A stretch of 64,000 nt of DNA from Omnitrophica WOR_2 bacterium GWF2_43_52 (GTDB lineage: Bacteria; Omnitrophota; Gorgyraeia; Gygaellales; UBA12090): positions 4,912 to 68,911 of the forward strand of contig MHGF01000038.1 in assembly GCA_001805445.1 (NCBI GenBank), read 5' to 3'. Under the pieces are notes generated by a model, which was not told the DNA's origin, ran no database searches, and was given only the letters and a program-made list of their open reading frames with translations. How positions within the stretch are numbered: the first letter of the stretch is position 1; each line of letters opens with the position of its first letter. This document shows positions 3,095 through 32,855 of this stretch, one piece after another. A program made the translations under genes and the position numbers.

Positions 3095-4432
3095 CTATCT
3101 GCCCCACACAACCCACACCAAAAGATAGGCTGCAACTACCGCCACAAGCGTAAAAGGCAGGCCTATCTTCATAAAATGAGTAAACTTGACCGGATAGCCT
3201 TCTTTTTTCAGCAGGCCGCAGGCAACAATATTAGCCGACGCCCCAATTGGAGTAATATTGCCTCCTAAGCTCGCCCCGATAAGCAGGCCGAAAAGAAATA
3301 ACGAAGGATTGACCGCTAATTTACCGGACATAGTGATTGCTACAGGAAGCATTGCCGCTAAAAAAGGGACGTTATCCACAAACGCGGATAAAAAGACGGC
3401 GATAAAAACAAGCAAGGTATAGCCTAAGAATATATTTTCCCCCACAAGCCCTGAGAGGAAATGCGCGGTTGTCTCAATCCATCCGGTTGAGCTAATGCTG
3501 CCTACCAAAATGAAAATTCCTACCAAAAACAAGGTGGTCTCCCAGTCCAAAGATTTTATTCCCTCAATAATAGAGCCCTTATTGACAAGTTTTTCCCACA
3601 GGATTGCTATTATGCCAAACACTATACAAATGATACCCGCGGCATAGGAAAATCCCGTATCAAAAAAAGAGGACAACGCCAGCAAGACAATAAGGCTTAC
3701 TAAGAGTATTGTAGGGACCCATGAACGCACCTTTTCAACCGGAATAAGCGTAGTTTTTTCCCTAAGATTTCTAAAAATAAAATATAACACAAAAAAAGAG
3801 GCGATTGCCCCTAACTCAACCGCGAAGAAGATACTGGGGCGTCCCTTATAAAAAAAGAAGTCCCAAAAGGTCATCTTGGCAAAACCGCCTAAAAGCATAC
3901 TGGGAGGATCCCCAATCAGCGTTGCAACCCCTTGCAAATTGCTAGAGATGGCAATGGCAATCATCATATTCGTCGGGTTTATTTTTAGTTTTTTGGCTAA
4001 AGATAAGGCAATGGGCGCGACAATCAAAACCGTTGCCACATTCTCCACAAATGCTGAGATAAAACCGGCAAGCGCGCAGATTAAAAGTATTGACCAAGCG
4101 GTATTCTTGGCTTTATCAACGATTATCTCAGCGATATACGCGGGGACCCGGCTCTCCATAAAGATATCCGCTACCACTAATGTCCCGACGAATATCCCCA
4201 TCACATTCCAGTTAATGGCGAAGAATGCCTGTTGAGGGCTTATCACCCCTAATAAAACCAAAAGCAGCGCGGCCGTAACCGCAATATGCGTCCTTTTCTT
4301 GGGCAAGAAAACAAAAAGAATATACGCGCTGATAAAGATCAAAAGCGCCGTTGCCTTGGTTTCCATAAAACTCATCATAATCGTAACCAATATATTTAAT
4401 TCCAATGCGGGTTTGGAATTCCAAACCCGCAT
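3095..4432 (-). CDS. ArsB/NhaD (SLC13/DASS-like) anion permease
   Basis: 445-aa polytopic membrane protein with the duplicated repeat architecture typical of the ArsB/NhaD/citrate transporter superfamily. Start codon uncertain (an internal MMSFMETK is also possible). Confidence 0.6.
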   Translation of the reverse strand: MRVWNSKPALELNILVTIMMSFMETKATALLIFISAYILFVFLPKKRTHIAVTAALLLVLLGVISPQQAFFAINWNVMGIFVGTLVVADIFMESRVPAYIAEIIVDKAKNTAWSILLICALAGFISAFVENVATVLIVAPIALSLAKKLKINPTNMMIAIAISSNLQGVATLIGDPPSMLLGGFAKMTFWDFFFYKGRPSIFFAVELGAIASFFVLYFIFRNLREKTTLIPVEKVRSWVPTILLVSLIVLLALSSFFDTGFSYAAGIICIVFGIIAILWEKLVNKGSIIEGIKSLDWETTLFLVGIFILVGSISSTGWIETTAHFLSGLVGENIFLGYTLLVFIAVFLSAFVDNVPFLAAMLPVAITMSGKLAVNPSLFLFGLLIGASLGGNITPIGASANIVACGLLKKEGYPVKFTHFMKIGLPFTLVAVVAAYLLVWVVWGR

Positions 4433-4455: not shown

Positions 4456-7200
4456 CTAAAGCCCCTTTAAGAAATTCCGTTTTCTATTAATAAGCTTTAC
4501 GATCTCCATCGCCCAGAGAGGAAACGATGAAATGCCCACCACCAAAACCCAATCAAATATCCCTAAGGCCTCGGTTTTAAATATCTTTTGCAAAAACGGT
4601 ATATAGACAACCGCCATCTGCAGGAAAAACGATACGCCTGTAGCTAGAATAAGCTTCTTATTGGTGAATATCCCTATTTTAAACAATGATTCCGTCATAC
4701 TCCGGCAGTTATAGGAATGAAATAACTGGCTGCATGATAACACGATAAATGCCGCGGTACGCGCCCGTTCAATACCTTCTTTTTCAATAAACAGCACAAA
4801 GGTAAACGCCAGCAAACTGCAAAAGGCAATAAACGCCCCTTGCGCGAGCATCAAAAATGCCCTCTGCTTAGTAACCACCTTTTCATTGATTTTTCGGGGA
4901 GGCCTCCGCATAATGTGCGGGTCAACAGAATCAACCCCCAAGGCCAAGGCAGGAAAACCGTCGGTAACCAGATTAATCCAAAGGATATGGATAGGCAAAA
5001 GCGGTACCGGCAGCCCCACCAGGGAGGAAACAAACATCACCAGTATTTCTCCGGCATTGCAGGACAACAGGTAGTGCACAAATTTCTTGATGTTATCGTA
5101 GATGCCCCTGCCTTCTTCTACCGCCGCCACAATAGAGGCAAAATTATCATCGGTAATAACCATATCCGATACTTCCTTGGTCACATCGGTCCCGGTAATA
5201 CCCATAGCCACGCCGATATCCGCCTCCTTAACCGCCGGGGCATCGTTAACGCCGTCACCGGTCATCGCAGCGATTTCTCCTTTTGAGCGCCAGGCCCTGA
5301 CAATACGCAGCTTATGTTCTGGAGAAACCCTGGCGTAGACCGGTATCCTCTCTACCTCTTTAGCAAACTGTTCATCACTAAGCCGGTCCAATTCCTCTCC
5401 GGTGAGCGCCAAAGAACCCTCTTTAAAAAATCCCAATTCCTTAGCAATGGCTACCGCGGTATTCTTGTGGTCACCGGTAATCATCACGCTTTTTATCCCT
5501 GCCCGCGCGCATTCGGCAATCGCCTTTTTCACTTCTTCTCTGGGAGGATCAATCATGGCAATTAACCCCGCGAAGGTAAGCTCACGCTCAATAAGTGTTG
5601 CTTCATAAGCCCGCGGGGCCGTATCCAGCCTACTGTAGGCCACTGCCAAGACCCTCAGCGCGGAGTTAGCCAAATCGCTGTTTACCGTAAGTATTTTTTT
5701 TCTATCATCATCAGTAAGCGCGCGCGCGCTGCCTTTTTCTTCAATTGCCGTACAATCACCAAGCAAAATATCCGGCGCTCCTTTAACAAACGCGACTAAC
5801 CCTTCTTTATCTTTTCGCACGATGGTCATTTTTTTGCGCTCTGAATCAAACGGAATTTCTTCCGTAAAAAGAAATTGTTCTTCCAGCTTTTCTTTCCATA
5901 AACCGGCTTTCGCGGCCGCGCTTAAAAGCGCTCCTTCGGTAGGGTCACCGACAATTTTATAACCTCCGTTATTTTTTTGTAATTCCGCGCCGTTACAGAG
6001 TACCGCGCAGCGTAACGCCGTATGTAATCCGGGATAATCAACCGGATTCACCGCTTTTTCATTAAACAAAAAATCTCCCTTTGGCTCATAACCGACGCCA
6101 GTTACTTTTAATAAAGCGTTGTCAGCAGAAACTACCTGCACGGTCATTTCATTCTTGGTAAGGGTGCCTGTCTTATCCGAACAAATCACTGTGGCACAGC
6201 CTAAGGTTTCAACTGAAGGCAATTTTCGGATAAGGGCATGGCGCTTGACCATCCGCTGAACTCCAAGAGCTAAGGCAATGGTTACTACTGCCGGCAGGCC
6301 TTCAGGGATAGCGGCTACCGCGAGGCTTACCGCGATAAGAAATACATCAATAAGTTTTCCGCCGCGCAGCCACTCTAAAAGAAAAACCAAACCCACAAGG
6401 ATAAAACACAAATATACTATCCATTTCCCGAATTCCTCTAACTTCTTCTGTAACGGCGTGGCCTCTTCTTTTACCTCCTGAATCATCCCGGCGATTTTGC
6501 CTAATTCTGTCTGCATGCCGGTTTCACAGACCAGCGCCCTTGCCTTACCCGCGGCAACTGAAGTCCCCATATAGGCCATATTGGCACGCTCAGCTAAAGG
6601 TATTTCCTGCCTATCGGCCCCGCCAGCGACGGGGCTGACAGGCAGGCTTTTTCCTAAAGGTAAGATGGCCTTCAATACCGGAGTAGATTCTCCGGTAAGG
6701 CTAGCCTCCTGGGTCGATAAATTAGCCGTAAGCCATACAATGCGGCTGTCTGCCGGGATATTATCACCAGCCTCCAATGCAATCAGGTCTCCCGGAACCA
6801 ATTCGTGTGAAGCGATAACACCATGCTGGCCGTCACGGATAACCTTGGAAGTAGGCGAAGATAATTTTTTTAAGGCGGCCATAGATTTTTCCGCCCGGTA
6901 CTCCTGAACAAAACCCAAAATGGCATTAAGGATGACAATGACAATAATGGCAGACGCGTCAACCCACTCTTTAAGGAATCCGGAAACCAGGGCCGCGGCA
7001 ATTAAAATCCAGACAATAAAATTCTGAAATTGGCTTAAGAAAATACTAAAAGGGCTTACCGGCTTTTTCTCTTTCAGCTGGTTCGGCCCGTATTTCTGAA
7101 GCCTTGCACGCGCCTCATCGGATGCCAACCCAAGAGACGAATTCGCTTCTAATGTTTGCACTACTTCATCAATAGTAAGATGCCACCATTGTTTAGCCAT
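4456..7200 (-). CDS. Cation-transporting P-type ATPase, type II (Ca2+/Mg2+ type), not a Cu-ATPase
   Basis: DKTGTLT phosphorylation motif and [10 protein letters not shown] hinge. [11 protein letters not shown] in TM4 is the PEGLP signature of type IIA/IIB pumps. There is no CPC motif or HMA domain. Start taken at MAKQWW. Confidence 0.85.
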
Positions 7201-10200
7201 CCGTGTCCCTCTTTGCAAAATCAACCTTCCAAATCACATAAAAAACCGGTATCACAATTAAAGACAGAATCAGGGCTGTAAACAGCCCGAAGATAATCGG
7301 CGCGGTATAGCGCTTTAAAAACTCCCCGCCAATGCCGCTGGCCCACATTGCCGGCATAAGCCCCAGGATATCCGCGGAGCAGGTCATCATTGCCGGCCTA
7401 AGGGCACGAGAGGCACCTTCGCTAATAGCCGCGTAAATATCTTCTTTAGCCTTTATTTTCCCCTCATTTTTGCGTTTGTCATACGCAACGGTAATAAAGG
7501 TAATAACAAGAGCGCATAAGGCCGCCCCGATGCCAATAACCTCCATCATCCCGGCATAGACGGCGATGGATTTATTAAAACCCAAAAGCCTGATGCTCCA
7601 GGCCGCGCCGATTGCGGTAAAAGGCATTGCCAGCATAATAAAAACAGTAGAAACAACTGACTTGAAATTAAAATAATATAATAGGAAAATAATCAAAAGT
7701 GTGGCAGGGATAAAAATACCCAGCCTCTTTTTCACCCGCTCCATATATTCATACTGCCCGCTCCATGAAAGCGAATATCCCGCGGGCAATTGCACCTTTT
7801 CCCGCACCGCCTTTTTGGCATCCCGGACATAACTGCCAATGTCACGGCCGGCCATATCCACATAGACATAGCCGGAAAGCATCCCGTTCTCATTCCTAAT
7901 CATTGCCGGGCCTAAGCTTACCTTAATATCCGCTAATTGCTCTAATGGCACCTGAGCCCCACTCTTGGTGGGAACTAAAACCCGCCTTAACTTATCCAAA
8001 TCATCGCGCAATTCCCGGGCATAACGCAGATTCACCGGATAACGCTCCCTGCCTTCAATGATAGTAGTGATATTTTCTCCCCCTACCGCCGACATTATCA
8101 CCATTTCGGCTTCCTCTATACTCAAGCCGTAACGAGCCAGCTGCTGGCGCTTTAAATCAAAGTCTACAAAGTACCCTCCCGCGGTGCGCTCGGCATAGAT
8201 ACTACGCGTACCCGGAACATCTTTTAACACCATCTCAAGATGCTCACCTACTTTCTCAATCTCTTTTAAATCCGAACCGAAGATTTTTATCCCCACCGGT
8301 GTGCGCACACCGGTAGTCAACATATCAATCCGGGCCTTAATCGGCATAGTCCAGGCATTGGTAGTGCCGGGAAACTGCATGTGATCATCCATCTCAGCAG
8401 TCAACTCTTCAAAGCTCATCGGCCGCTTGAAAGCAGGAAATGATTTTCCGAATAGAGGAACCTTTCTCCACTCTTCTCTGGGCTTCAAAATCACGGTAGT
8501 TTCCATCATTGAAAAAGGGGCAGGGTCAGTAGAGGTTTCGGCACGTCCGGCCTTGCCAAAAACCCTTTCTACCTCAGGGAAACTCTTTAAGATTTTATCC
8601 TGGGCCTGAAGCAGTTTAGAGGCCTCGGTAACTGATAAACCCGGTAAGGTAGTCGGCATATATAGTATGCTTCCTTCATATAAAGGCGGCATAAACTCTG
8701 AGCCTAATTTTAAAAAAACCGGAACAGTCACAGCCAAAACCGCGATTAATATCAAGACCACAACCTTACGACTCCTGAATGCCCAGGCGAGAACTTTTTT
8801 ATGGCATTTAGCCAGGAAGCGTGAGGCAAAATGTTCATCCAATGCCCGGGGTTTAGTCTTACGCAGAAATATCATAATTAAAGCCGGGACTAAAGTAATA
8901 GAAAGCACTGCCCCGAAGAAAACTGAAAATATCTGGGTAGCAGCCATAGGCCGAAAGAGCCTGCCTTCCTGTCCGACTAAGCTAAAAAGCGGCAAGAACC
9001 CGATAACCGTAACCATAAGCGATGAAAATATCGGTGCTCCGACCTCTTTCATCGCCTCAATCATTACCTGAGCGCGCTCACCATTGATCTTTCCTTCTCG
9101 CAGGTCGCATAACTTTGAATGGACATTTTCAACCAAAACTACCCCCACATCCACCATATCTCCTATAGCCAACACTATGCCCATAATTGACATTATATTT
9201 ACGGTAAGGCGCATCCCCAGCATCGGAATAAAGGCAATCAATGCCGCGGCCGGAAGAAGTAGTATCGGCATCATTGCCGAAGGAATATGCAAGAGGAAAA
9301 AAATAATCATTACCGCCACAATCAGGAAGTCTTCAATGAGGACCTCGCTAATAGTGTCAATTGATTTCTTGATTAAGTCAGTGCGGTCATAGGCGGTAAC
9401 TATCTTTACCCCCTTAGGAAGTGACGGCTCTATTTCTTTTAGTTTTTCCTTAACCCTTTTAATCACCTCTAACGCGCTTTCACCGTGGCGCATCACCACA
9501 ATCCCGCCTACGCAGTCTCCTTTGCCGTCTAATTCTGCCACGCCCCGGCGGATATCCGGGCCTAAGGAAACATTCGCGATATGCTTTATCAAAATAGGTG
9601 TTCCGCTTTTGGCATCCACTCCTACCACAATCTCTTCTAAATCCTTAACGGATTTAGCATACCCCCGGCCCCTGACCATATACTCAGTCCCGGAAAATTC
9701 CAATAGCCGGCCGCCCACATCATTATTGCCCTTACGGATGGCCTCTGCCACTTCAGTAATAGGGATGTTGTAAATCAGGAGTTTGTTAGGGTCAATGTTG
9801 ACTTGATACTGCCTGACAAAGCCGCCGACAGTAGCTACCTCAGCCACACCGGGAACACTCTGCAGGTAATAACGCAAATACCAATCCTGAAAGGTGCGCA
9901 GGTCAGCTAAAGAGTTCTGGCCGGTTTCATCCACCAAAGCGTATTGAAAAACCCATCCCACACCGGTAGCATCCGGCCCCAATTCCGTGCGCACACCATC
10001 GGGAAGACGAGAGGTGATTTTAGAAAGATACTCTAAGACCCTGCTCCTTGCCCAATAGATGTCAGTCCCGTCCTGGAAAATGACATACACATAAGAATAG
10101 CCGAAATCCGAGAATCCCCGAATGGCCTTAACCTTAGGCGCGCCCAATAAGGCAGTTACTATAGGATAGGTTACCTGGTCCTCCAGGATATCCGGAGAGC

Positions 10201-16002: not shown

Positions 16003-17583
16003 TCATTTTCCCTCCACGAATACAGGAATTTTCTTTAATACTACTATAACTTTTCCATTAGCTATTGCTTTTGATTCTATTTTAAAGAAACTTGGATAAT
16101 CATTCTCATCCAAATCTGCTCCAGATTCTGTATTTGGAATTGCTTCGGTTATCTTAACTGATTTAAAGTCGCCTATATCTAAAATAATAGTTTTCGAATC
16201 CTGCTCTTCCTTCCAATAATCCCACCATGCTACATAGGTTGGGTTGCCATTCTTAATGAATTTATATAAATAAACATTATCAACTTCTGTTTTAATCGCT
16301 CTAATATTACTCCAATCGCTTCCTTTCAAAATTTCAATGAGTTTTTTGAATGCGTAATAGGAAAGCTTTTTTATGCCCTTCCCCGGATCTGGGCAGGGCA
16401 ACCATCCTTCGCTGCATTTCTGCTTTCTTGATTTCCCGTCAGGAATACCATTATAAATAAGCCCTATATAATTAAAATGTACATTGAACTCGCCTTGGTA
16501 TTTCCTATGTTCATAAACAGTTGACCAAGGGATTTTTTGGGTGTTGTTGGCAAGATTATAAATAAATCTTTTAGCCAAAAATTCTGCTTGCTGCTGTTCG
16601 CTTTGGTAATTATCCATCAAATGTTTTCTTTCTTGGATGTCTTTTCCTGAATAAGTTGCGCCTGCTCTTATCAGGAATTCTTTATCGCCATAGCCGTTAT
16701 TTTTCAAAAAATTAATAAAGTCTTTTGCTTCATAACCAGCCTCATTTTTCGCGTAATTATTAAATTCCCCGAACCAGTGCGATTCCCAGTAATCAAACGG
16801 CTCGTAGGCAAGCTTAGATTGTTTAAGCTTTGAAAATACAAGCCGGTAAAATTCGCCATGCTTGCCTTCAAGGTCAGTAAAGGAGCCGGCTCCAGCCAGA
16901 ACTATCTTTGACTGCGAAGATAGGTTTCTCAATATTTCTGCCGAATCAATTACGAAATTAACATACGCTGTGGCTGCCTTGTCACTATCTTTATCAAAGG
17001 TATCCTTGTATTCAGCATTAACTTCATTATAAAGGTTCCAGCGGACTACATACCAATCAGGATTGACCGACACTTTCCTCCCGTATGAATTCACAAAATT
17101 AACTAAAGCTGTTAGGTAATCCTTATATGCTTGCCGGGAAACTGAACCGTCCGGCAGATAGGTCTTTTTATCTTTCCTTTCTTTTCCGTCGATAAATTTA
17201 TAGTTTGAAGGAGGCCCAATGACAATCCATACGTGTGTCTTTCCTTGCCCCACCACTAAATCAATTAATTCTTTTGCCTGTGAAAAATCATACTGCTGGC
17301 AAGTAAATTTACCGCATTTCACTTCGGCTTGTTTCCTGCCTATTATATCAACGACGAATCCGGCTCCGTTGGCGTCTTTACTCAAACCAAGATCTTTTAA
17401 AATTGCAGGCAACGCGTTTCCTGCTTCCGTATCTTTTTGATCATAAGGATTACTTAAACCAAAAGGAATCTCTTCGGCTGAAAAGTTTGGTTCAGGGAAA
17501 GCAGGCTTTTGAAAAACCGAAAATGAACCACTACCCACAGCAATGATTATAACTGCAATGATCAAAATGATTAGTTTATTCAT
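16003..17583 (-). CDS. Secreted hypothetical protein, possibly a clan GH-A-like glycoside hydrolase
   Basis: N-terminal signal/TM MNKLIILIIAVIIIAVGSG. Internal NEVNAEY resembles the NEP catalytic-acid motif of TIM-barrel glycosidases. Weak. Confidence 0.4.
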   Translation of the reverse strand: MNKLIILIIAVIIIAVGSGSFSVFQKPAFPEPNFSAEEIPFGLSNPYDQKDTEAGNALPAILKDLGLSKDANGAGFVVDIIGRKQAEVKCGKFTCQQYDFSQAKELIDLVVGQGKTHVWIVIGPPSNYKFIDGKERKDKKTYLPDGSVSRQAYKDYLTALVNFVNSYGRKVSVNPDWYVVRWNLYNEVNAEYKDTFDKDSDKAATAYVNFVIDSAEILRNLSSQSKIVLAGAGSFTDLEGKHGEFYRLVFSKLKQSKLAYEPFDYWESHWFGEFNNYAKNEAGYEAKDFINFLKNNGYGDKEFLIRAGATYSGKDIQERKHLMDNYQSEQQQAEFLAKRFIYNLANNTQKIPWSTVYEHRKYQGEFNVHFNYIGLIYNGIPDGKSRKQKCSEGWLPCPDPGKGIKKLSYYAFKKLIEILKGSDWSNIRAIKTEVDNVYLYKFIKNGNPTYVAWWDYWKEEQDSKTIILDIGDFKSVKITEAIPNTESGADLDENDYPSFFKIESKAIANGKVIVVLKKIPVFVEGK

Positions 17584-18578: not shown

Positions 18579-18763
18579 TTTTCACCCTCCTCAATGAGCA
18601 CTTGACTTATGGAGTCCGCAGGACGAACATAAGTCAATGTGCGAATTGATCCCGAAGCGTGCGAAGTAAATTTCGCAGAAATTTACGAGCGCTTACGCAA
18701 GGGATATTTAATGTATGCGAGTTGTCTATGCCTGGCATTGCTCATCCTTGACTACGGCGTATT

Positions 18764-19903
18764 TTACACCGCCATCGCGCTTTGGGCTTTTGCTTTTTCT
18801 TCTATGGAAGCAAGTAAAGAATCAAAAGATTTTTCAAAGGCGATAACCCCGTCATTAAGCAGCTTCGCGCATACCTCATTGATATCAATTGTGAGCGCCT
18901 TTAATTCCCTGATAACCTCCGCGGCAGGCGTTATATTCTTAGTCAATGCCTCTTTCACTATTCCATGATCCAGAAATGCCTCAAGGGTAGTATCGGGAAC
19001 AGTATTCACCGTATTTTGGGAAATCAATTCACTCACGTATTTTATATCGCTATAGCGCGGATTCTTGCTTGAGGTTGAGGCCCAGACGATACGCTGTAGC
19101 GATGCGCCCTTATCCTCAAGCTGCTTCCATTCAGGCGATTGATAAATCTCTAAAAACTTACCATAAATAAGCCCGCAGTTACTCACTGCCGCCTTGCCTC
19201 TTAACGATTGTAAACGTACAGCTTCCTCCTGATTTGGCGCATTCTTTATAAGTTGCTCTATGCTAGCATCAATTGCGGTATCTGTCCTGCTCACAAAGAC
19301 ACTGGCTACCGAATGTGTATCACTTAATCTTGCGCCTTTATCAGCCAGGCGCCGCATGCCTTTTAAGAATGCCTGCGCGGTCTTGATATACTGCTCTAAG
19401 GAAAATATGAGCGTGGCATTGACGTTCATGCCTTGCGCTAACAATGCTTCAATCGCGCCAAAGCCTTCCTCTGTAGCCGGGACCTTAAGCATCAGATTAG
19501 GACGGTTTACCTTTTTCCACAGTCTTTTTCCTTCCTCCACAGTATCTTGAGTCTGCCGGGCTAATTTAGGATTTATCTCTAAGCTTACATACCCGTCTAA
19601 TTTGTTGGTTTTCTCATAAAGCGGCCGGAATATATCAGTTGCCGCTTGCACATCGCTTATAGTAAGGTCATCATACACCTCAAAAACCGATTTCCCTTTC
19701 CTATGCAGTTGGGCAATCGTTTCGTCATAATCCTTACTTTGGCTGATTGCCTTATCAAATATGGTAGGATTAGAAGTAACTCCGCTCAATCCCTGCGCGA
19801 GCAGCGCTTTGAGTTTTCCGCTTGCAATCAAAGAACAGCTTATATTATCCAGCCAAATACTCTGTCCAAAATCCCTAAGATTTTCAATTGTCGTTTGAGC
19901 CAT
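18764..19903 (-). CDS. tal: Transaldolase (long form)
   Basis: NLRDFGQSIWLDNIS...GVTSNPTIFDKAI...MLKVPATEEG are conserved transaldolase motifs, including the Schiff-base lysine context. Confidence 0.85.
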   Translation of the reverse strand: MAQTTIENLRDFGQSIWLDNISCSLIASGKLKALLAQGLSGVTSNPTIFDKAISQSKDYDETIAQLHRKGKSVFEVYDDLTISDVQAATDIFRPLYEKTNKLDGYVSLEINPKLARQTQDTVEEGKRLWKKVNRPNLMLKVPATEEGFGAIEALLAQGMNVNATLIFSLEQYIKTAQAFLKGMRRLADKGARLSDTHSVASVFVSRTDTAIDASIEQLIKNAPNQEEAVRLQSLRGKAAVSNCGLIYGKFLEIYQSPEWKQLEDKGASLQRIVWASTSSKNPRYSDIKYVSELISQNTVNTVPDTTLEAFLDHGIVKEALTKNITPAAEVIRELKALTIDINEVCAKLLNDGVIAFEKSFDSLLASIEEKAKAQSAMAV

Positions 19904-20237
19904 CCTTATGTCCTCCTCTGTTTTCCTTTACTACGCATCTATACCAAAAATTTACCTAAAATATCTACTATAGTGTAACCGGTCGGTGAACGGGGGAAAT
20001 ATTTTCCCGCTCTTCCCTCTCCCCTCGTGGGAGAGGTTAGGCGAGGGGGAAAAATTGCGAGTTTCCACTATTTACTGACCCATTGCCTATTTAACCGCAT
20101 TCGTACTTTATTCAATCCTTACCTCATCGCCGCCTTCCGTCATAAAGTCTAGAAAATCGGGATCATCCATCTTTATGTAGGAGCGGACTATGTGTTCGCC
20201 CTGATTATCGTTCGGGCAGACACGCAGGTCTGCCCCT

Positions 20238-20275
20238 ACTCATATACCATCTGGTCAATTTGGCGTTCGTATTCC
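20238..20275. repeat. 36-bp direct repeat, left copy (actcatatac(c)atctggtcaatttggcgttcgtattcc), flanking the ORF6N gene
   Basis: Identical apart from a 1-nt indel to 21262-21298. Confidence 0.8.
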
Positions 20276-20307
20276 GATCTCTACTCGATTTTATTATTGC
20301 CAACTTT

Positions 20308-21237
20308 CTAAATATCCCTGCTTTTCTCCCACCATTCAGCAAATGGCGGAAAATTTGCCGTTCTTTTTACTTCACTATATTGCCCTCGCGCGACAGTATC
20401 AGTTGAGGGCATGTTATAGCAAAGATTTTCTGAAATAATCCATCTATCATGAATATCAGCCCTCAATTTATTATCTATTATAACCCGCAATTCACACTTT
20501 ATGCCATCGCTTTTGAGTTCTTCCTTTAAATCTTTATATAAGGATACGAATTTCTCATCCGCCTTTTCTGACGACATCAGGATTTTTATGCCTTTTACTT
20601 TACTGGCACTGAGCGACTCTGATAACCAATCTAACCCCGCTCTTGAGAAATATTTATCTACCCAGTAAATATACTTTTCGCAAGAACTAATAATATCCCT
20701 GATTGCTTTCTTGTTTGAAAACGGTTTACCCGGAGACAGCAATTTGGCATCTAATGGTTTATGGATAACCTCAAAAATAGTTCTTATTTTCTTATCGTGC
20801 GATTGAACCGTATCTTCCAATTGATTCAATTTGTTAAGTATTCCTTTATTTGTAGAAATTAATTTTCTTATATTAACAAATACCCGCATTATGCCGATAT
20901 TTACTTGTATCGCCCTTTTATTATTAAGAACACTGGAGAGCATGGCAACTCCTTGCTCTGTGAAGACATAAGGTAAATAACGGCGACCACCCCAACTTGA
21001 GGCCACAATTTGTGACCTCAAACTTGAGGTGACAATTTGGCACCTCAAGAATTCTTCTCTGGTTAATTGAAACATAAAATCTTCAGGAAACCTTTCGATA
21101 TTTCTGCGGACCTGACGAGTTAAATATTTTGTTTCTACCCCATAAAGTTCAGCGAGGCCTTTATCTAACATTACATTCAAACCTCTAATCAAAAATATCT
21201 TTTTTTCGATAATGCCTTGTTTAATAATATCGGTCAT
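20308..21237 (-). CDS. ORF6N (KilA-N-like) domain protein with an uncharacterised C-terminal domain
   Basis: N-terminal IFLIRGLNVMLDKGLAELYGVETKYLTRQVRRNIERFPEDFMFQLTREEF...YLPYVFTEQGVAMLSSVL matches the ORF6N DNA-binding domain. Confidence 0.7.
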   Translation of the reverse strand: MTDIIKQGIIEKKIFLIRGLNVMLDKGLAELYGVETKYLTRQVRRNIERFPEDFMFQLTREEFLRCQIVTSSLRSQIVASSWGGRRYLPYVFTEQGVAMLSSVLNNKRAIQVNIGIMRVFVNIRKLISTNKGILNKLNQLEDTVQSHDKKIRTIFEVIHKPLDAKLLSPGKPFSNKKAIRDIISSCEKYIYWVDKYFSRAGLDWLSESLSASKVKGIKILMSSEKADEKFVSLYKDLKEELKSDGIKCELRVIIDNKLRADIHDRWIISENLCYNMPSTDTVARGQYSEVKRTANFPPFAEWWEKSRDI

Positions 21238-21261
21238 ATTTTTCTTAGGCTAAACCGTATA

Positions 21262-21298
21262 ACTCATATACATCTGGTCAATTTGGCGTTCGTATTCC
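21262..21298. repeat. 36-bp direct repeat, right copy
   Basis: See 20238-20275. This copy sits inside a 47-codon minus-strand ORF with a strong SD. Confidence 0.8.
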
Positions 21299-21498
21299 CT
21301 GCCTACCGGCAGGCAGGTTTGACTGCCTGGCAGTGAATTAAGTATTGTGTCCCCCCGAATATGAATAACGGTTTTAGGCATCCTCATATCCTCCCATGTT
21401 TTCCTTTATGACGTATCCATATTTATCATTTTGCCAAATCTTCTTACATTTCTCCCCTTTAACACTTTCACACATCCACCGATTATTTTCGCCTTTAT

Positions 21499-22398
21499 TT
21501 AACTAAATTTCTTCTCAATAAGAACTGCTATTATCTTCCATTCTTCATCTGTAACCGGAAAGTTTGTACCTCGAGAGAAATTGAATATCGATAAACGAGA
21601 TAGTTCTGGGATCTTTTTCAGTTCCTGTTTATAAATAGGTCCTTCAGGAAATTTAATTTTATACTTATAATTAACCCGCAATTTTCGCTGTTGCTTATCT
21701 TCATCGCTTATCCAGTATTTAGACGAATCGAGAGAATCTATGAGAAATTCTGGATCAGAGGTAATGTCTATTACGGCATAGATACCTGCTTCTTCACCTG
21801 ACATCCATATAAGGCCAATATCGCCTTTCTTGATTTCATTCTTATGTTGATTAACAAGCCAGACATCTTTATTTAGCTTTTCATCAGCAAGTGCATTAAG
21901 AATGTCAAATCGCTGCGGATTAGCCTGAAATATCCATATATGACAACGGCGAGACAATATATCAAATTCTTTTATAACTTTCCTTGTTACCAATTTTTGT
22001 TCAGGAGTAGCTTCGTCTTCAAACTTATAATGGTATTTCTCCGCAATTTTATTGATTTGAGATATGGATATTTCTAAAGACTGAACTCCCATCTTTTCTT
22101 CCATAAATATAGCAAGTTCTTTTGGAATTATGTTAGCAACGAGCATTAAGCGAATCTCTTCTGAGGGGCTATCCTGCCTGAGCAAGCCATAATATGCGCC
22201 TATCTGACCTATGGCTTCTCGCATGAGAAGTCCCCGCTTAATCTCCATTATTAATTTTGCTCTAGGTCCATCTTGAAACACAAGATCAGCGCGATATCCC
22301 CCAAGTTGCATTTGTCTACCAACCAAAATGAGATTTTTGTGAGGCAGAAATTCTTCAGGATGCTTTTCCAATAAATTTTCTATATCTCTTTCTAGCAT
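21499..22398 (-). CDS. PD-(D/E)XK nuclease fused to a C-terminal EVE (PUA-like) domain; candidate modified-DNA-dependent restriction endonuclease
   Basis: N-terminus YRADLVFQD...LIMEIKRG gives the D...ExK nuclease signature. C-terminus IWIFQANPQRFDI...KKGDIGLIWMSGEEAGIYAVIDI matches the EVE domain fold signature. Confidence 0.55.
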   Translation of the reverse strand: MLERDIENLLEKHPEEFLPHKNLILVGRQMQLGGYRADLVFQDGPRAKLIMEIKRGLLMREAIGQIGAYYGLLRQDSPSEEIRLMLVANIIPKELAIFMEEKMGVQSLEISISQINKIAEKYHYKFEDEATPEQKLVTRKVIKEFDILSRRCHIWIFQANPQRFDILNALADEKLNKDVWLVNQHKNEIKKGDIGLIWMSGEEAGIYAVIDITSDPEFLIDSLDSSKYWISDEDKQQRKLRVNYKYKIKFPEGPIYKQELKKIPELSRLSIFNFSRGTNFPVTDEEWKIIAVLIEKKFS

Positions 22399-22508
22399 TT
22401 TTTACCTTGAAGATTCCATAAACCTCGTACGCGAGAAAAAATAAATGGCCGGACACTGACAGTAGGCATTACCTCATCTATCTCTCGCTGCAAACTTCTT
22501 TTCTTTTA

Positions 22509-22650
22509 GGGGCCAGGTCTATTTTTAAAACATTCTCTCCGTTGCCCTTACGATTCTGCCATCTTAAATATACTCTGACCCAATTTTCTTTCGCTGAAAA
22601 TGGATGATGTGTCAACAAAATTCTGTGCTTAAGACTTGCCTCTTTTTACC
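22509..22650. repeat. About 140-bp direct repeat, copy A, downstream of the HEPN/MNT pair
   Basis: Shares around 75-80% identity with 23888-24025 (...cgattctgc(c/a)atc...actctg(a/g)cc...tttcgc(t/c)gaaaatggatga...caacaaaattctgt(g/a)cttaa(g/a)acttg(c/g)cc). Confidence 0.7.
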
Positions 22651-22773
22651 GGAAAGCGTGTTTTAAAATACTATCCTTGAGTATGCGTTTTATCATATGT
22701 GGCGTATTCCAGCTATCATAATAGCAATTTTATGCCTGTACCTAAAGAGGCTGGGTAAATATTTGCGGGCGTA

Positions 22774-23214
22774 TTATTTTCTACCCTTTTTCAGAAGTAT
22801 CTGTTTCGCGGCCTTGAGGAATCTCTTCGCGCTTTCAATAACCGCCTGAGCTCCTTCCTGAGAAAACTGTCTCCGATAATCGGCATCTTCCCGAAGAATC
22901 ATAGAATTATTAAAATCTTCGGCTAACTTAGGATCTAATTTCTTCTCTTGGACAAAAAATTCCTTTAGCGTGAGGTAAAGACAATAATGACCTTTTTCAC
23001 GATATCCACGAGAATAAAGTAACGCCCGCGCGGAATGAAACATAGAATAATAACCTTTGATAGTGGCCCATTTAAAACCGGATTCCGAGAATTCTTCCTG
23101 GGCGGAGCATAAATCGCTCTCCGCGTCTTTGATTTCAAAATCGACCAATTGTTTTGCTGGTTCAAAACGGAAAATCCTCTTCTTCTCTAAACAATCTTTA
23201 AAGGATATACTCAT
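22774..23214 (-). CDS. HEPN-domain protein (toxin of a HEPN/MNT pair)
   Basis: RGYREKGHY is an R-x4-6-H HEPN motif. It overlaps the upstream MNT gene by about 17 nt. Start taken at MSISFKD. Confidence 0.65.
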   Translation of the reverse strand: MSISFKDCLEKKRIFRFEPAKQLVDFEIKDAESDLCSAQEEFSESGFKWATIKGYYSMFHSARALLYSRGYREKGHYCLYLTLKEFFVQEKKLDPKLAEDFNNSMILREDADYRRQFSQEGAQAVIESAKRFLKAAKQILLKKGRK

Positions 23215-23764
23215 TAGTCTCCCTCTCCCAAAGGATTTTCCCCTTTTCCACTTGCTCAAGGAACACTCTTTCTTCTTTACCTTTTTTAAAAAGCTCTTCC
23301 GGAGCCTTAATAATCGGCTGCACTTTGCGATTATAGAGTTCTGCAGAGTAAGAAAATTTATTGATTACAGACAGTGTCTTTTCTTTTTCAGAACTAACGA
23401 TAAACAGGTCAATATCACTATCCTCATTATCATTCCCTTGAGCCCAACTGCCAAAGAGGACTATTTTATGGCTTAATCCTTTCAGCTTTTCTATCAGAGG
23501 CTCAATTAAAAGTAGATTAACAAGAACCTTAAACTCTTTAAGATAAGGATTAGTCTTATCAATAGAGTAGAAATACATCCGGCCATTTTGTTTTCGGTTA
23601 ATCACGCCCGCCCGATAGAGGCGCACCAAAACATGGTGGGTTGAACTTGGGCTTAAGCCTGCCTTCCGCGCAATCTCTCTCTCATAAAAAGACGCGCCCG
23701 GATGCAGGACAAAGAAGCTTAAGACTTTCTGATGATTAGTAGAAATAAGATATGAATTAACCAT
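23198..23764 (-). CDS. wHTH + minimal nucleotidyltransferase (MNT) protein, the antitoxin partner of HEPN
   Basis: LFGSWAQGNDNEDSDIDLFIV is the GS-x9-DxD polymerase-beta-type NTase motif. The N-terminal winged helix is YEREIARKAGLSPSSTHHVLVRL. Confidence 0.7.
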   Translation of the reverse strand: MVNSYLISTNHQKVLSFFVLHPGASFYEREIARKAGLSPSSTHHVLVRLYRAGVINRKQNGRMYFYSIDKTNPYLKEFKVLVNLLLIEPLIEKLKGLSHKIVLFGSWAQGNDNEDSDIDLFIVSSEKEKTLSVINKFSYSAELYNRKVQPIIKAPEELFKKGKEERVFLEQVEKGKILWERETNEYIL

Positions 23765-23887
23765 TGCTCAATAAATTAAACTCATGCTCCTTTCATGGAG
23801 CATGATAGCAAGTTTGGAAGTGGCTGTCAATACAATTTTCTCGCAATAATTCAGCTCTTGGAAGTACTCCGGCGAAACATAAAACTT

Positions 23888-24025
23888 TAGGAGTCAGGCC
23901 ATCTCTATTCCCCTCGCGATTCTGCAATCCTGAATTCACTCTGGCCTCATTTTTCCTGGTTTTCTTTCGCCGAAAATGGATGACTTATCAACAGAATTCT
24001 GTACTTAAACTTGGCCATCTTTTGC
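23888..24025. repeat. About 140-bp direct repeat, copy B, upstream of the HEPN/MNT pair (a partial third copy lies near 24058-24085)
   Basis: See copy A. Confidence 0.7.
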
Positions 24026-24114
24026 TCAATAAAAATTCCCTTTCCCGCATCATAAACTCACTCTGGCCCCATTTTCCTTATCAATGTCTAATGTCTGGGT
24101 CTGACCCCTTTATT

Positions 24115-26358
24115 CTATTTTTCCAATTCTGCCTTTAGTTTTTCTAGGTCGGTAACGGGCAATTTGCAGGTATACTTTTCACAGACGTATGCCGTTGCCT
24201 TGTGTTCTAAAGGGATTTGGTTTTCTAAAAATGGTATAAGCTTAATAATTTTGGTTGCTTCTCTTTTATCCGCGGGGTGAAATACAAGTATTTTATTCGG
24301 CATAAAGCGCTGATACACGGCCTTTATCATCTGCTGCGTGCCTTCAGATTCACCATCTCCGGCAATAACAATCTCTTTTGAGGGGCCAAAGGCGAAATCC
24401 AAAGCGCTTAGGGTTTGCGCGCAGGCTGTAGGAGAGCGGGAAATTTCGGCTGAAAACGCCTTAAAAAAGGCTTCCGCTTTTTTGTCTAATTCTTTATCCA
24501 TAAAAAAACGCGCTAACCGCAACAAATCCAAACCCGCAATGGAATTACCTGACGGCATTGCCCCGTCATAGGCTGTCTTATGCCGGATGAAAAGCCTTTC
24601 TGCATCAGAGGCTGTTGAAAAAAACCCTCCGTCTTGCGTATCCCAGAAAAGCTCAAGCATCTCCTGGGTAAACCGTTTGGCGTGCGCAAGGTATTCCGGC
24701 TTAAAACCTGCCTCATATAAATCAAGCAGCCCTTGGATAAAAAAGGCATAATCATCAAGCATTCCTTTAATCGCGGCTTCCCCGTCGCGATAGCGGTGCA
24801 AAAGCCTGCCGTTTTTATCCTGCAAATTCTTTAAAATGAATTGGGCGGCTTTCTCTGCCTGCACAAGATACGCCGGCTCATTTAACACGCGCGCGCCGAT
24901 GGAAAAAGCTGAAATCATCAGGCCGTTCCAATCTGTCAGGATTTTATCATCGCGATGAGGGCGCGGCCTTTTGTTACGGAGAGCAAAAAGCTTATTTTTT
25001 GCTTCATTTATTGTTTTCTTTATTTCTTGAGGGGATTTTCCAAATTGAGCAGCAGTTTCTTCTATCGTATGCGCGATATAAAAGACATTTTTATTTTTAA
25101 ATTCTCCCTGCGGATCAGACAACGCGTTACCGCTATCCTCAATGCCAAAATAAAAGCATATTACATCTAAGAACGGCTTGTCCAAAATGCGAGTAAGCTC
25201 ATCTTTTGTCCAGAGATAGAATGCGCCTTCGGTTTTTCTCTTACTCTCTGCTTCGATCGAGTCGGCGTCTTCCGCGGAATAAAAACCTCCTTCCAAAGAA
25301 AACACATCACGCAGGACATATTCAAAAATGCCTTTGGCCGTCTGGGCATGCTCTTGTTTTCCCGTTACCTGATACGCCTCTATATATGCCTTGGCAAGTA
25401 TCGCCTGGTCATAGAGCATCTTCTCAAAATGAGGAATACGCCACTGCCTGTCCGTCGAATAGCGGTGAAACCCTCCGCCAAGCTGGTCATACATCCCGCC
25501 TTGCGCCATCGCGCTCAATGTTTTCTCAACCATCTCAAGCGCCTTTGGCTCTTTGGAGCGCTTCCAATAACGTAAAAGAAAAGAGAGCGAATGCCCGGAA
25601 GGAAACTTTGGGGCATCGCTAAAGCCGCCGTAGCGCTCATCAAAGTTCGCGCTAAAATCTTCATAGGCGCTTTTGAATATCTCTTCGGTAAGAGAAAACC
25701 CTTCTTTAGTTTCTTTTTGCTTAGTAAGAGCCTGGGTGAGCTCCTGCGCGGTATCAACGAGCTTATCCCTGCGGCTCTTCCAATTCTTGATAATTGATAA
25801 AAGCAATGTTTTAAAACCGGGCCTGCCCCAGCTGTCCTCTACAGGAAAGTAGGTGCCGCCGTAAAAAGGCTTTTTCTCAGGTGTTAGAAAAACGTTTAAC
25901 GGCCAACCGCCGGAGCCGGTCAAAGCCATTACCGCCTGCATATAGATTTCGTCTAAATCCGGCCTTTCTTCACGGTCAACCTTGATAGGGACAAAATAGG
26001 CATTGAGTAGGCCAGCGATTTCCTCACTGGAAAATGCCTCTTCCTCCATCACATGGCACCAATGGCAGGTGGAATAGCCTATAGAAACAAACAGCGGCTT
26101 ATCTTCTTTTTGCGCCTTTTGGAATGCTTCATCACCCCAAGGATACCAGTCAACCGGATTATGGGCATGCTGCAAAAGATACGGGCTCTTTTCCTTGATA
26201 AGGCGATTAGTAACGATGTTTTTCGGCTCTGTTTTATTTTCTTTTGTATTCACGTTGCAGGCTCCCAGAAAAAATAAGAATGGAATACTTAAAAATATAC
26301 TACTTCGTAATAAATCCTTCGCCTCATTCATCAAAGGATATAGTTGTTTCCACCTCAT
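24115..26358 (-). CDS. Thioredoxin-domain protein, DUF255/YyaL family (thioredoxin fold + six-hairpin glycosidase-like domain)
   Basis: [50 protein letters not shown] is the family hallmark. Lipoprotein-like N-terminus (FLGAC). Confidence 0.85.
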
Positions 26359-26376
26359 ACCATTGCCAAAGGTACG

Positions 26377-27384
26377 TTATATCGCGGTCATTTGCCAGCA
26401 TCGATGAATACCTCTATTACGATAGTCTTCGGGGATAGTTTTTGGCGTCAGCTCTACAACATTACAAACAGAAAGGCCTTCAAGATGCGGTTTAAAACGC
26501 TGATGATTTGTCGAAAAAAATACTAAAGAACCCGGAACCATGACTTTTAAGGCCTTTTGTATGAGCCCATGATGATCGCGGTTAATGTCAAAAGAAATCC
26601 CTTTATCGCGGTCTTGAAAGAATGATGGAGGGTCAACGAATGCCAGCGTAAAACGCCTGCCTTCACGATACGCCTCTTCCAGATAGGCGTCGACATCAGA
26701 TTGTATAAGGGAATGCTGCCGCCCCCACAGTTTATTTAACTCCAAATTATCCTGTATCCACCCAAGATAGGTGGCTGAACGGTCTACGCTGACTGTCGTT
26801 TTAGCGCCTGCGGCTGCCGCGGCAACGGTGAACGCGCCCGTATACGCGTACAGATTGAGGAAATCCTTACCCGCGGCGCATTGGGCAATGATACGCCTGG
26901 TATCGCGATGGTCAGAATACAAACCTGTATCCAGAAAATCATCAAGGTTAACCCAGAAACGTAAATTCCGTTCTCGCACTTCAAAACGCTCTCCCAGGGA
27001 AGCCATCTTACGGTAACGAGCTCCCTCTTCGGGCTTGGTGCGGCGGCGCTTCAGGTGCACCCGATCCAAAGGAACACTCAAAGCTTCTGCTACAGCCGCT
27101 GCCATTTTGGGAAGCCATTCCTGTCCGGTCTGCAAACGCTCGTATTCTGCTATCACGATATGGCCGGCATACCAGTCAACCACGGCGCGAACCTCAGGAA
27201 TATCCCAATCATAGAGGCGGAAACAATCAATATCCTGACGCCGGAAACGCCGCGATAAATGGCGGAAACGAGCGCGAATACGGTTTGACAAAATCTGCGC
27301 GTGGTGTTGAGCCTTTTCAGAAGTCACCCAATGCTTAGGTTTCAATCTTTCCGGTGTCACCTTCATAGCAATCCTTAAAATCAA
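26377..27384 (-). CDS. Class I SAM-dependent (rRNA) methyltransferase, RlmK/RlmI-like
   Basis: FLNLYAYTGAFTVAAAAAGAKTTVSVDRSATYL...FTLAFVDPPSF are Rossmann MTase motifs I and IV (DPPxF type). Confidence 0.7.
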   Translation of the reverse strand: MILRIAMKVTPERLKPKHWVTSEKAQHHAQILSNRIRARFRHLSRRFRRQDIDCFRLYDWDIPEVRAVVDWYAGHIVIAEYERLQTGQEWLPKMAAAVAEALSVPLDRVHLKRRRTKPEEGARYRKMASLGERFEVRERNLRFWVNLDDFLDTGLYSDHRDTRRIIAQCAAGKDFLNLYAYTGAFTVAAAAAGAKTTVSVDRSATYLGWIQDNLELNKLWGRQHSLIQSDVDAYLEEAYREGRRFTLAFVDPPSFFQDRDKGISFDINRDHHGLIQKALKVMVPGSLVFFSTNHQRFKPHLEGLSVCNVVELTPKTIPEDYRNRGIHRCWQMTAI

Positions 27385-32637: not shown

Positions 32638-32855
32638 AGTGCTCCGTCAAATTAATTCTTATGGATAGGCGGAATTTGACTCCGCACTTCCGCTATGGGG
32701 GCAAGCCCCCCTTCGGCGCTCTCCGCCTACGGCGGATCGCTGAGCACCCCCCAATCGCGGGGAAAATATTTCCCCGCGCCCCTTTTCGTACACCGTCACA
32801 CTAATAAAAACTAATTTGATGGTGTACGAGTGCTCCGTTAACTTAATTTTTATGG
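32638..32855. repeat. GC-rich multi-hairpin element bounded by 27-bp direct repeats (agtgctccgtcaaattaattcttatgg / agtgctccgttaacttaatttttatgg). A third copy of the 27-mer lies at 15757-15783
   Basis: The hairpins are gggggcaagccccc, ccgcctacggcgg, cgcggggaaaatatttccccgcg and cgtacacc...ggtgtacg. The motif abuts the rlmB start codon and, at 15757, the azoR pseudogene fragment. Confidence 0.55.

Follow-up and report, generated by a model that had tools for sequence, protein, structure and literature searches.

The dusA-specific islands are integrative elements which integrate at the start of a gene and leave that gene restored. Among defence proteins, the fusion of an EVE domain with a PD-(D/E)XK nuclease has been described by Bell et al. 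(2020; PMC7641849), and in a preprint one representative of the candidate class PDC-S05, bearing a RhuM domain, and one of the class PDC-M05 gave protection against phage. The DNA analysed here is a stretch of 64,000 nt (the window) from contig MHGF01000038.1 of Omnitrophica WOR_2 bacterium GWF2_43_52. Between tal, encoding transaldolase, and a gene for a DUF255 thioredoxin-domain protein the window contains a patch of 4.2 kb with three modules: an ORF6N/PLD-like gene, a gene for a NucS-like/EVE nuclease and a pair of genes for MNT and HEPN proteins. A preliminary description, made from the letters of the DNA, compared the patch to a cassette array. We consider it probable that the patch is instead a small defence islet of mosaic make-up, located where the DNA just upstream of tal is variable and built by at least three separate acquisitions, and that its direct repeats are the scars of insertion.

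Origin of the flanking repeats

The start of tal is present twice, in a pair of repeats which the preliminary description overlooked. The functional copy (B1, 19893-19943, minus strand) comprises the tal leader, the ribosome-binding site and the first codons. The second (B2, 21364-21421, minus strand) is dead and repeats the leader together with ~11 initial codons of tal (MPKTVIHIRGD). The two match over 51 nt (19893-19943 / 21371-21421) with 80 % identity (E 9e-7). B1 is 89 % identical to the tal leader of the related locus L043, and B2 matches 46 nt of the tal 5' region there with 91 % identity. B2 starts with ATG CCT AAA ACC GTT ATT, i.e. MPKTVI, with which the closest tal relatives also begin (P0123-P0125, MPKTVIENLRD), and the homology stops after tal codon ~11. 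As judged from these matches, B2 is a dead copy of about positions -40 to +33 of tal (~73 nt). The B1-B2 pair brackets a 1.4-kb insert in which ORF6N is the sole gene. B2 also opens a 43/45-aa open reading frame (ORF) within 21250-21387 (minus strand), annotated as a gene in several public assemblies. It is almost certainly no gene, being a chimera of the dead tal 5' end, GC-rich hairpins and a frameshifted methylase relic (EYERQIDQM).

Inside the B pair, the ORF6N gene is enclosed by a second pair of repeats, A. The gene strand of A1 (20238-20275, minus strand) reads EYERQIDQMVYE followed by a stop codon. A1 is a partial relic of the 3' coding end of a DNA methylase gene, 97 % identical to the methylase 3' ends of L034 and L035, two loci picked by exact-match search. 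A2 with its continuation (21238-21304, minus strand; A2 proper 21262-21298) is a frameshifted relic of a methylase 3' end and ends at the ATG of ORF6N. A1 and A2 align over 38 nt with 97 % identity and one indel (score 69, shuffle maximum 30). The 36-bp bracket reported earlier around ORF6N is therefore a real pair, not a cassette site but a methylase 3' end. Translation of A2 gives EYERQIDQM and, after a 1-nt deletion, VYELYGLA and a stop; from the relic to the ORF6N start, 70 nt align with the 3' end of the Eco57I-type methylase gene of L034 at 83 % identity. The translation identifies repeat A as the 3' terminus of the coding sequence for an Eco57I-type DNA methylase (EYERQIDQMVYELYGL). An exact 24-mer of A was found in only two records of the metagenome collection. 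In L034 it belongs to the C-terminus of a 612-aa Eco57I/TaqI_C methylase (...KEYERQIDQMVYKLYDLTDEEIKIVEKEVES), and in L035 it survives as an orphan relic which follows an AAA_13 ATPase gene and adjoins a 1088-aa Eco57I-type gene.

A like methylase relic lies directly upstream of the ORF6N homologues in L036 (Desantisbacteria) and L039 (another Omnitrophota contig), and in L048 the order Eco57I-type methylase, S-like gene, ORF6N is intact. Together with the translation of A, this indicates that A is a piece of a methylase gene travelling with ORF6N, A1 being a second partial copy. The A1-ORF6N-A2 unit resembles 1.04 copies of a 1023-nt repeat. A GC-rich hairpin, GGGCAGAC-n6-GTCTGCCC (20214-20235), truncates relic A1, and further GC-rich hairpins, CTGCC-A-GGCAG and CCTGCC-n8-GGCAGG (21299-21340), lie between relics B2 and A2; all were recognised from the sequence and from DNA folding. 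The core of A was absent from viral contigs in an exact-pattern scan.

Direct repeats of a methylase 3' coding end are also present around other genes. In L035, 105-nt repeats (5734-5838 / 8414-8515) bracket the AAA_13 ATPase gene, and in L036, 40-nt repeats (88-127 / 2192-2231) bracket a gene for a UvrD-like helicase. L035 and L036 are unrelated metagenome contigs in which the cargo is appended to Eco57I-type methylase genes, and the pattern is that of repeat A around ORF6N.

The third pair, C, flanks the MNT/HEPN genes. C1 (22509-22668, units Y-X) is enclosed by a 19-nt inverted repeat (22523-22541 / 22650-22668), and C2 (23888-24075, units X'-Y-X) lies just 3' of the DUF255 stop codon. The core of the pair (22536-22646 / 23902-24023) is 73 % identical over 123 columns, with a score of 89 against a shuffle maximum of 31. 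When indels are allowed the match reaches ~22509-22650 / 23888-24025, and a third partial copy is found at 24024-24075. The earlier observation of ~140-bp repeats around HEPN/MNT thus stands far above shuffles. The accompanying statement that each module is bounded by its own repeats does not hold for the EVE gene, which has no pair of its own and sits between C1 and B2. Repeat C is local non-coding DNA. None of the six frames is open in C1 and C2 alike. Rfam gave no match (patch at E<=1, whole window at gathering thresholds), so that C is not a known RNA, and C is absent beside the MNT/HEPN homologues L044-L046. A shared K[YH]RILL..HPFSAKEN stretch was considered as the trace of a gene and dismissed as too weak. 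No further copies of A, B or C were found elsewhere in the 64-kb window.

The spot upstream of tal varies among relatives. In L041/L042 (tal 85 % identical in amino acids) and L007 (73 %) the gene order is DUF255-GT2-tal-flavodoxin with tight spacing, while in L043 (tal 88 % identical) the DNA upstream of tal encodes a fragment of an ISAzo13-like transposase and a pair of small secreted proteins; the patch is absent from all of them. Since L041/L042 and L007 have GT2, a glycosyltransferase gene, between DUF255 and tal, the patch replaces GT2 in the population of the window only. No GT2 relic above noise was found in the gaps of the patch by tblastn with GT2 of L041 and L007. The absence from L041/L042, L007 and L043, the PADLOC classes of the modules and a lower GC content (36-40 % in the patch, 44-46 % in the flanks) support the reading, already given in the preliminary description, of an accessory defence insert between conserved genes. 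L041, without the patch, has a 34-nt relic of tal codons ~11-21 (4792-4825) ~100 nt upstream of its intact tal, which suggests repeated rearrangement at the start of tal.

Duplications of other sequences flank the same modules at other sites. The ORF6N insert of L049 has a perfect 30-nt direct repeat (4937-4966 / 5931-5960), and that of L051 a 61-nt repeat of ~89 % identity (~2816-2877 / ~3950-4010), the downstream copy of which stops 6 nt short of the start codon of the next gene. Both repeats are unrelated to A, and they scored 60-68 against shuffle maxima of 28-31. Significant flanking repeats were thus found in three of eight ORF6N contexts (30, 61 and 73 nt, the sequences all different). 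As ORF6N inserts in two other genomes have their own unrelated duplications, insertion with long duplication of the target seems to be a recurrent process. Around the MNT/HEPN genes of L044 there are repeats of ~54 nt.

Probable insertion history and competing explanations

On comparison of the sequences, the ORF6N gene, the EVE nuclease gene and the MNT/HEPN pair travel as separate modules. The module boundaries and the nature of the repeats can be read directly in the DNA, and from them we infer an order of events. The ancestral gene order would have been DUF255-GT2-tal. GT2 would then have been lost and the gene for the NucS-like/EVE nuclease placed directly upstream of tal; this gene lies in the target of both later insertions, and therefore it probably came first. 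A ~1.24-kb wHTH-MNT/HEPN segment (wHTH, winged helix-turn-helix) would have entered upstream of the EVE gene with duplication of ~123-140 nt of local non-coding DNA (C). A ~1.42-kb segment with the ORF6N/PLD-like gene would have entered at tal codon ~11 with duplication of ~73 nt of the target (-40 to +33), after which the downstream copy B1 would have stayed the working tal start and the upstream copy B2 decayed. ORF6N would have come with the last ~65 nt of an Eco57I-type methylase gene upstream of it (A2) and a 38-nt second copy (A1) at the other end. The arrangement around B runs from the EVE side through B2, the 1.42-kb insert (hairpins, A2, ORF6N, A1, hairpin and ~290 nt more) and B1 to the rest of tal, and that around C from the DUF255 side through C2, the 1.24-kb insert (promoter, MNT, HEPN) and C1 to the EVE side. 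The differing identities of the repeats suggest relative ages for C, B and A. Insertion-duplication is the likely route, by a single crossover of circularised DNA through short gene-end homology with the target or by another illegitimate or staggered-break insertion. The machinery would have been host functions or a recombinase supplied in trans, and not an integron integrase.

Several observations weigh against this history. No empty site or intermediate genome showing any single step was found, and the order of events therefore follows from the repeat identities (73 % < 80 % < 97 %) and the geometry. Repeat A does not fit a simple target-site duplication, as the methylase homology runs on after the upstream and not the downstream copy, and the nucleotide identity of L034 and L035 to A arises partly by construction, from the way in which these loci were picked. 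No relative of C turned up in Rfam, among viral contigs or at any of the loci fetched. Five of the eight ORF6N contexts (L036, L039, L040, L048, L052) and one of the three MNT/HEPN contexts (L047) are free of flanking repeats, so that the duplication is either not obligatory or decays. The searches for a recombinase and for further copies of A and C cover the 64-kb window, and a distant integrase or more copies of A or C may exist elsewhere in the genome.

In an integron-type or other attC-like cassette array, to which the preliminary description had pointed, the repeats would be recombination sites for an integrase encoded outside the window. We find this very unlikely. The co-oriented genes, the long gaps, the direct repeats bracketing two modules and the 19-nt terminal inverted repeats of C1 would fit such an array, but the A, B and C pairs share no sequence and do not form one structural family, A and B are fragments of protein-coding genes, and the EVE gene is without a repeat pair, so that there is not one site per cassette. 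Attempts to fold A and C on both strands as attC-like structures came out against the proposal: the fold of C2 is not superior to those of shuffled sequences (z +1.1 and +0.4), A shows no structure, and C1 has only 19-nt terminal arms (TTTTAAAAC...GTTTTAAAA) which misfit the attC core consensus. No RYYYAAC/GTTRRRY core sites are present, and there is no intI in the 64 kb. No integrase, recombinase or transposase domain was detected in the ORFs of at least 150 aa of the window, in agreement with the earlier remark that no integrase is visible, nor in public gene calls within +/-10 kb. The co-orientation of the genes was correctly noted but is not distinctive, as the minus strand carries every non-shadow ORF of at least 150 aa in all 64 kb. 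The patch was also called promoter-poor, whereas the MNT/HEPN module carries its own strong, near-consensus promoter and an operator. Finally, homologues of the modules occur elsewhere without these repeats, a finding which the preliminary description had itself set against a cassette array, and on which that model therefore fails. The scan for tRNA and tmRNA genes gave none, leaving no tRNA-type att site. A dif/Xer-like nature of the 30-38-nt repeats was considered and rejected, no palindromic arms being visible by eye.

It is extremely improbable that the repeats are chance similarities or assembly artefacts. They are short and come from metagenome assemblies, but they score far above shuffles, contain recognisable coding relics and are identical in six independent assemblies from different assemblers and samples. 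An unlikely origin is a decayed tyrosine- or serine-recombinase element which targeted the tal 5' end and brought a replacement gene start, as the dusA islands do, and whose integrase has since been deleted. The duplication of the tal leader and first 11 codons, with a dead distal and a functional proximal copy, would be expected of such an element, the tal 5' relic of L041 would suggest repeated use of the site, and the content upstream of tal varies among the three close relatives. Against it, no integrase is found in the window or in the equivalent region of the relatives, the 1.4-kb insert carries the single gene ORF6N, and the ORF6N inserts at unrelated sites with their own local duplications argue against a tal-specific att. 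Also rather unlikely is a mobile cassette made up of the ORF6N gene by itself, and perhaps another of MNT/HEPN, which new machinery, possibly the ORF6N/PLD-like protein, would insert co-oriented and immediately before host genes, with target duplications of 30-140 nt. The distinct 30-, 61- and 73-nt repeats in three of eight independent ORF6N contexts speak for this, as do the homology between copies, which stops within ~5 nt of the coding sequence (CDS), the constant co-orientation of the gene with its neighbours inside operons, the 70-90 % amino acid identity across phyla, the many homologues on contigs of 1-2 kb and the conserved palindrome in the CDS; the C-terminal PLD-like fold could be that of a nuclease. 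However, the other five contexts are repeat-free, no conserved element termini are found and the length of the duplication is highly variable. The PLD-like domain moreover has H-x-R and not the catalytic HxK, its fold matches include the non-catalytic MITD1 and TrmBL2, and the sample is small and without empty sites.

A wider proposal, which we regard as doubtful, is that small defence modules (ORF6N/PLD-like, MNT/HEPN and Eco57I-methylase cargo) spread as cassettes which need no integrase, both within Omnitrophota and among nearby uncultivated phyla, the recurrent process leaving target duplications of 30-140 nt. Conserved gene ends, the stretch for the methylase C-terminus YERQIDQ(L/M)VYxLYxLTxEEI and the tal start, would be portable anchors of homology, and the ORF6N palindrome would serve as a cis-acting site or in autoregulation.

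The three modules and their surroundings

The gene content reported earlier (ORF6N, EVE nuclease, HEPN and MNT) is borne out by Pfam matches, the nuclease half of the EVE protein being matched only below threshold. The ORF6N gene (20308-21237, minus strand) encodes an ORF6N domain (Pfam 1e-33), a coiled coil and a PLD-like C-terminal domain, and its product belongs to the candidate single-gene defence class PDC-S05 of PADLOC (profile PDLC04869, 3.2e-65, residues 4-269 against profile positions 11-262 of 306). Residues ~172-309 (window 20308-20790) have no Pfam match and are predicted to adopt a PLD-like fold, with a predicted local distance difference test score (pLDDT) of 80-93. The nearest fold matches are MITD1, TrmBL2, PLD3/4, SauUSI, Zucchini and NucT, and an invariant H263-x-R265...N275 replaces HxK. 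No significant sequence match to the protein was found among solved structures. By analogy with its class, the protein may be a DNA-binding effector. It has more than 100 homologues in several phyla. Nucleotide identity of 79-86 % to copies in Desantisbacteria, Omnitrophota, Elusimicrobiota and others is restricted to the CDS +/-5 nt. The sites occupied by the gene include hisB-hisH (L040), the position before pyrH (L039), hypF...-hypCD (L048) and others.

Within the ORF6N CDS, two tandem 27-nt palindromic units (20994-21047, minus strand) encode LRCQIVTS and LRSQIVAS. The palindrome has the form UUGAGGnnnC-AWWUU-GnnnCCUCA with a 12-bp stem, encodes LR-x-Q-x-x-T-S and is present in one or two tandem copies, also in L036 (2480-2510), L039 (4193-4223), L040 (4193-4250), L048/L049 (5193-5223), L051 (3193-3223), L052 (3127-3184) and L053-L055. 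For nine instances, taken from seven loci, pairing holds in 93.5 % of cells, double-sided changes affect three pairs, and the covariation score was reached by none of 500 shuffles. In 120 close homologues the amino acids encoded there change together in the manner expected from complementary codons (F..E, S..V/A, C..G/V). In ORF6N genes of gut phage contigs, which are just 54-60 % identical, the stem is kept at the same place with a different sequence. The palindrome could be an RNA or DNA hairpin or a symmetric DNA operator, either of which gives the same pattern. As far as titles and abstracts of the literature mentioning ORF6N go, a covarying palindrome in its coding sequences appears to be new.

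The EVE nuclease gene (21499-22398, minus strand) encodes a 299-aa fusion of a probable NucS-like PD-(D/E)XK nuclease with an EVE domain, a putative modification-dependent (type IV-like) restriction enzyme. The EVE domain is C-terminal (Pfam 4.1e-16, residues 154-291). The N-terminal match to NucS_C (E 1.5e-4, 22.2 bits) is below the Pfam cut-off of 24, and that to the NCBIfam NucS model (8e-6) far below its cut-off; a D38...E52-I-K54 motif is visible in the sequence. The full-length NucS-like + EVE architecture is rare, with ~6-7 clusters at 50 % identity among 1.84 billion representatives. Viral contigs gave no relatives of the protein, and solved structures no significant sequence match. 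By analogy with related enzymes it would cut DNA with modified bases.

The MNT gene (23198-23764, minus strand; PDC-M05A) encodes an N-terminal wHTH and an MNT domain (Pfam Polbeta 5.5e-10, NTP_transf_2 6.5e-9, weak HTH matches; PADLOC 2e-29), and its match to NCBIfam MntA (5e-8) is below the cut-off. The HEPN gene (22774-23214, longest ORF to 23259, minus strand; PDC-M05B) overlaps it by 17 nt and has matches to HEPN in Pfam (4e-13) and PADLOC (1e-5); other assemblies call a protein of 146 aa. Where the Rx4-6H motif is usually situated, the HEPN protein reads, by eye, ...ILREDADYRRQF... (R-E-D-A-D-Y), with Y for the expected H; an R-E-K-G-H is present in another part of the protein. Upstream of the pair, a promoter with an overlapping palindromic operator occupies 23782-23837 (minus strand). 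The promoter, TTGACA-17-TATCAT (23830 to 23802), matches the sigma-70 consensus at 11 of 12 positions and overlaps a perfect palindrome with a 9-bp stem (23805 to 23782), and both are kept in homologous modules. The span from 23837 to 22796, which starts just before the -35 box and finishes close to the HEPN stop codon, is the sole part 88 % identical in nucleotides to L044-L046, and 23837 is also the upstream edge of homology with MNT/HEPN modules in other genomes. The pair is probably a type VII-like toxin-antitoxin or abortive-infection system, by analogy with known pairs, and may be autoregulated through the wHTH and the operator.

Both flanks of the patch were identified by Pfam as the conserved genes named in the preliminary description: tal (18764-19903, minus strand; TAL_FSA 7e-78), the N-terminus of which is now MAQTTIENL, and the DUF255 gene (24115-26358, minus strand; Thioredox_DsbH 8e-78), syntenic in L007 and L041. 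The non-coding gaps of the patch, described as long, measure 404, 261, 375 and 350 nt. A tal protein identical to that of the window is encoded by GCA_003499645.1 and by 24 public contigs, the latter from metagenomes of groundwater and anammox reactors, and six contigs of the same population are 99.8-100 % identical to the window across 18701-26400. The closest named relatives are metagenome-assembled genomes of Candidatus Omnitrophota. The whole patch had no match in plasmid and phage collections (blastn). The strand bias of the window (1-64000, ORFs of at least 150 aa without overlap shadows) is unusually strong. A 526-aa ORF (16003-17583) without a Pfam match lies in a second GC dip (36-40 %) and keeps its position in the population; after the flavodoxin-like gene, L041 and L007 have a different gene (for alpha-amylase or a pyridine-nucleotide oxidoreductase) and not this ORF. 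Palindromic sequences of the GGGGGAAATATTTTCCC type, 16-20 nt long, are present at 19991-20010, in the tal-ORF6N gap, and at 32758-32777, and may be a shared terminator or an element similar to repetitive extragenic palindromes.

Comparison with known systems

As a defence islet the patch is ordinary, and adds an example, from a poorly known phylum, of the clustering of type IV-like, toxin-antitoxin-like and candidate systems. Its modest value is in the readable scars, as the duplicated gene ends allow single acquisitions to be reconstructed without a mobile-element gene. The similar repeats of gene ends which flank other cargo genes in unrelated genomes are a hint that small defence genes may have a general way into operons without an integrase. 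As in defence islands and variable hotspots, unrelated defence modules are clustered between conserved genes, are absent in close relatives and deviate in GC content; unlike these, the patch is only 4.2 kb long, has no mobile-element genes and retains legible gene-end relics of single insertions.

The single modules also have their counterparts. The EVE nuclease joins an EVE reader to a putative nuclease, as do the EVE-fused modification-dependent enzymes (EVE-HNH VcaM4I, PMC7897488; EVE-PD(D/E)XK, PMC7641849, PMC6765204), and resembles the latter group in the probable fusion of a PD-(D/E)XK nuclease to EVE and in its defence context. It differs from them in that its nuclease half is NucS-like and N-terminal, in an exact architecture which is rare. 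The overlapping MNT and HEPN genes are alike to the type VII HEPN/MNT systems (HepT/MntA) and PDC-M05, the MNT protein matching PDC-M05A and, weakly, MntA; it differs in its N-terminal wHTH, and the HEPN protein reads R-E-D-A-D-Y at the motif position. Genes appended to restriction-modification loci, such as those of the PrrC/RloC-type AAA_13 ATPases, offer a parallel to ORF6N, which follows an Eco57I-type methylase gene or its relic in L048, L036, L039 and the window, and whose position after the methylase is taken by the AAA_13 ATPase in L035. In the window, by contrast with such loci, the methylase is gone and ~65 nt of its 3' end are left.

With integron cassette arrays (attC, intI) the patch shares co-oriented short modules between repeats, and toxin-antitoxin cargo is typical of chromosomal integrons. 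It has neither intI nor attI, its repeats lack the structure of attC sites, are mutually unrelated and derive from ordinary genes, and one of its modules has a promoter. The duplication of the 5' end of the target gene (B1/B2), with the functional copy at the gene and the dead copy at the far end, is that of the dusA-type elements, but the insert in the window has no integrase, is only 1.4 kb long, and its cargo gene occupies unrelated sites elsewhere. Campbell-type insertion-duplication of circular DNA likewise leaves one copy of the homologous segment, in direct orientation, at each end of the inserted DNA, and needs no recombinase of the element. For the patch it is proposed from the geometry, and the homologies would be unusually short (30-140 nt).

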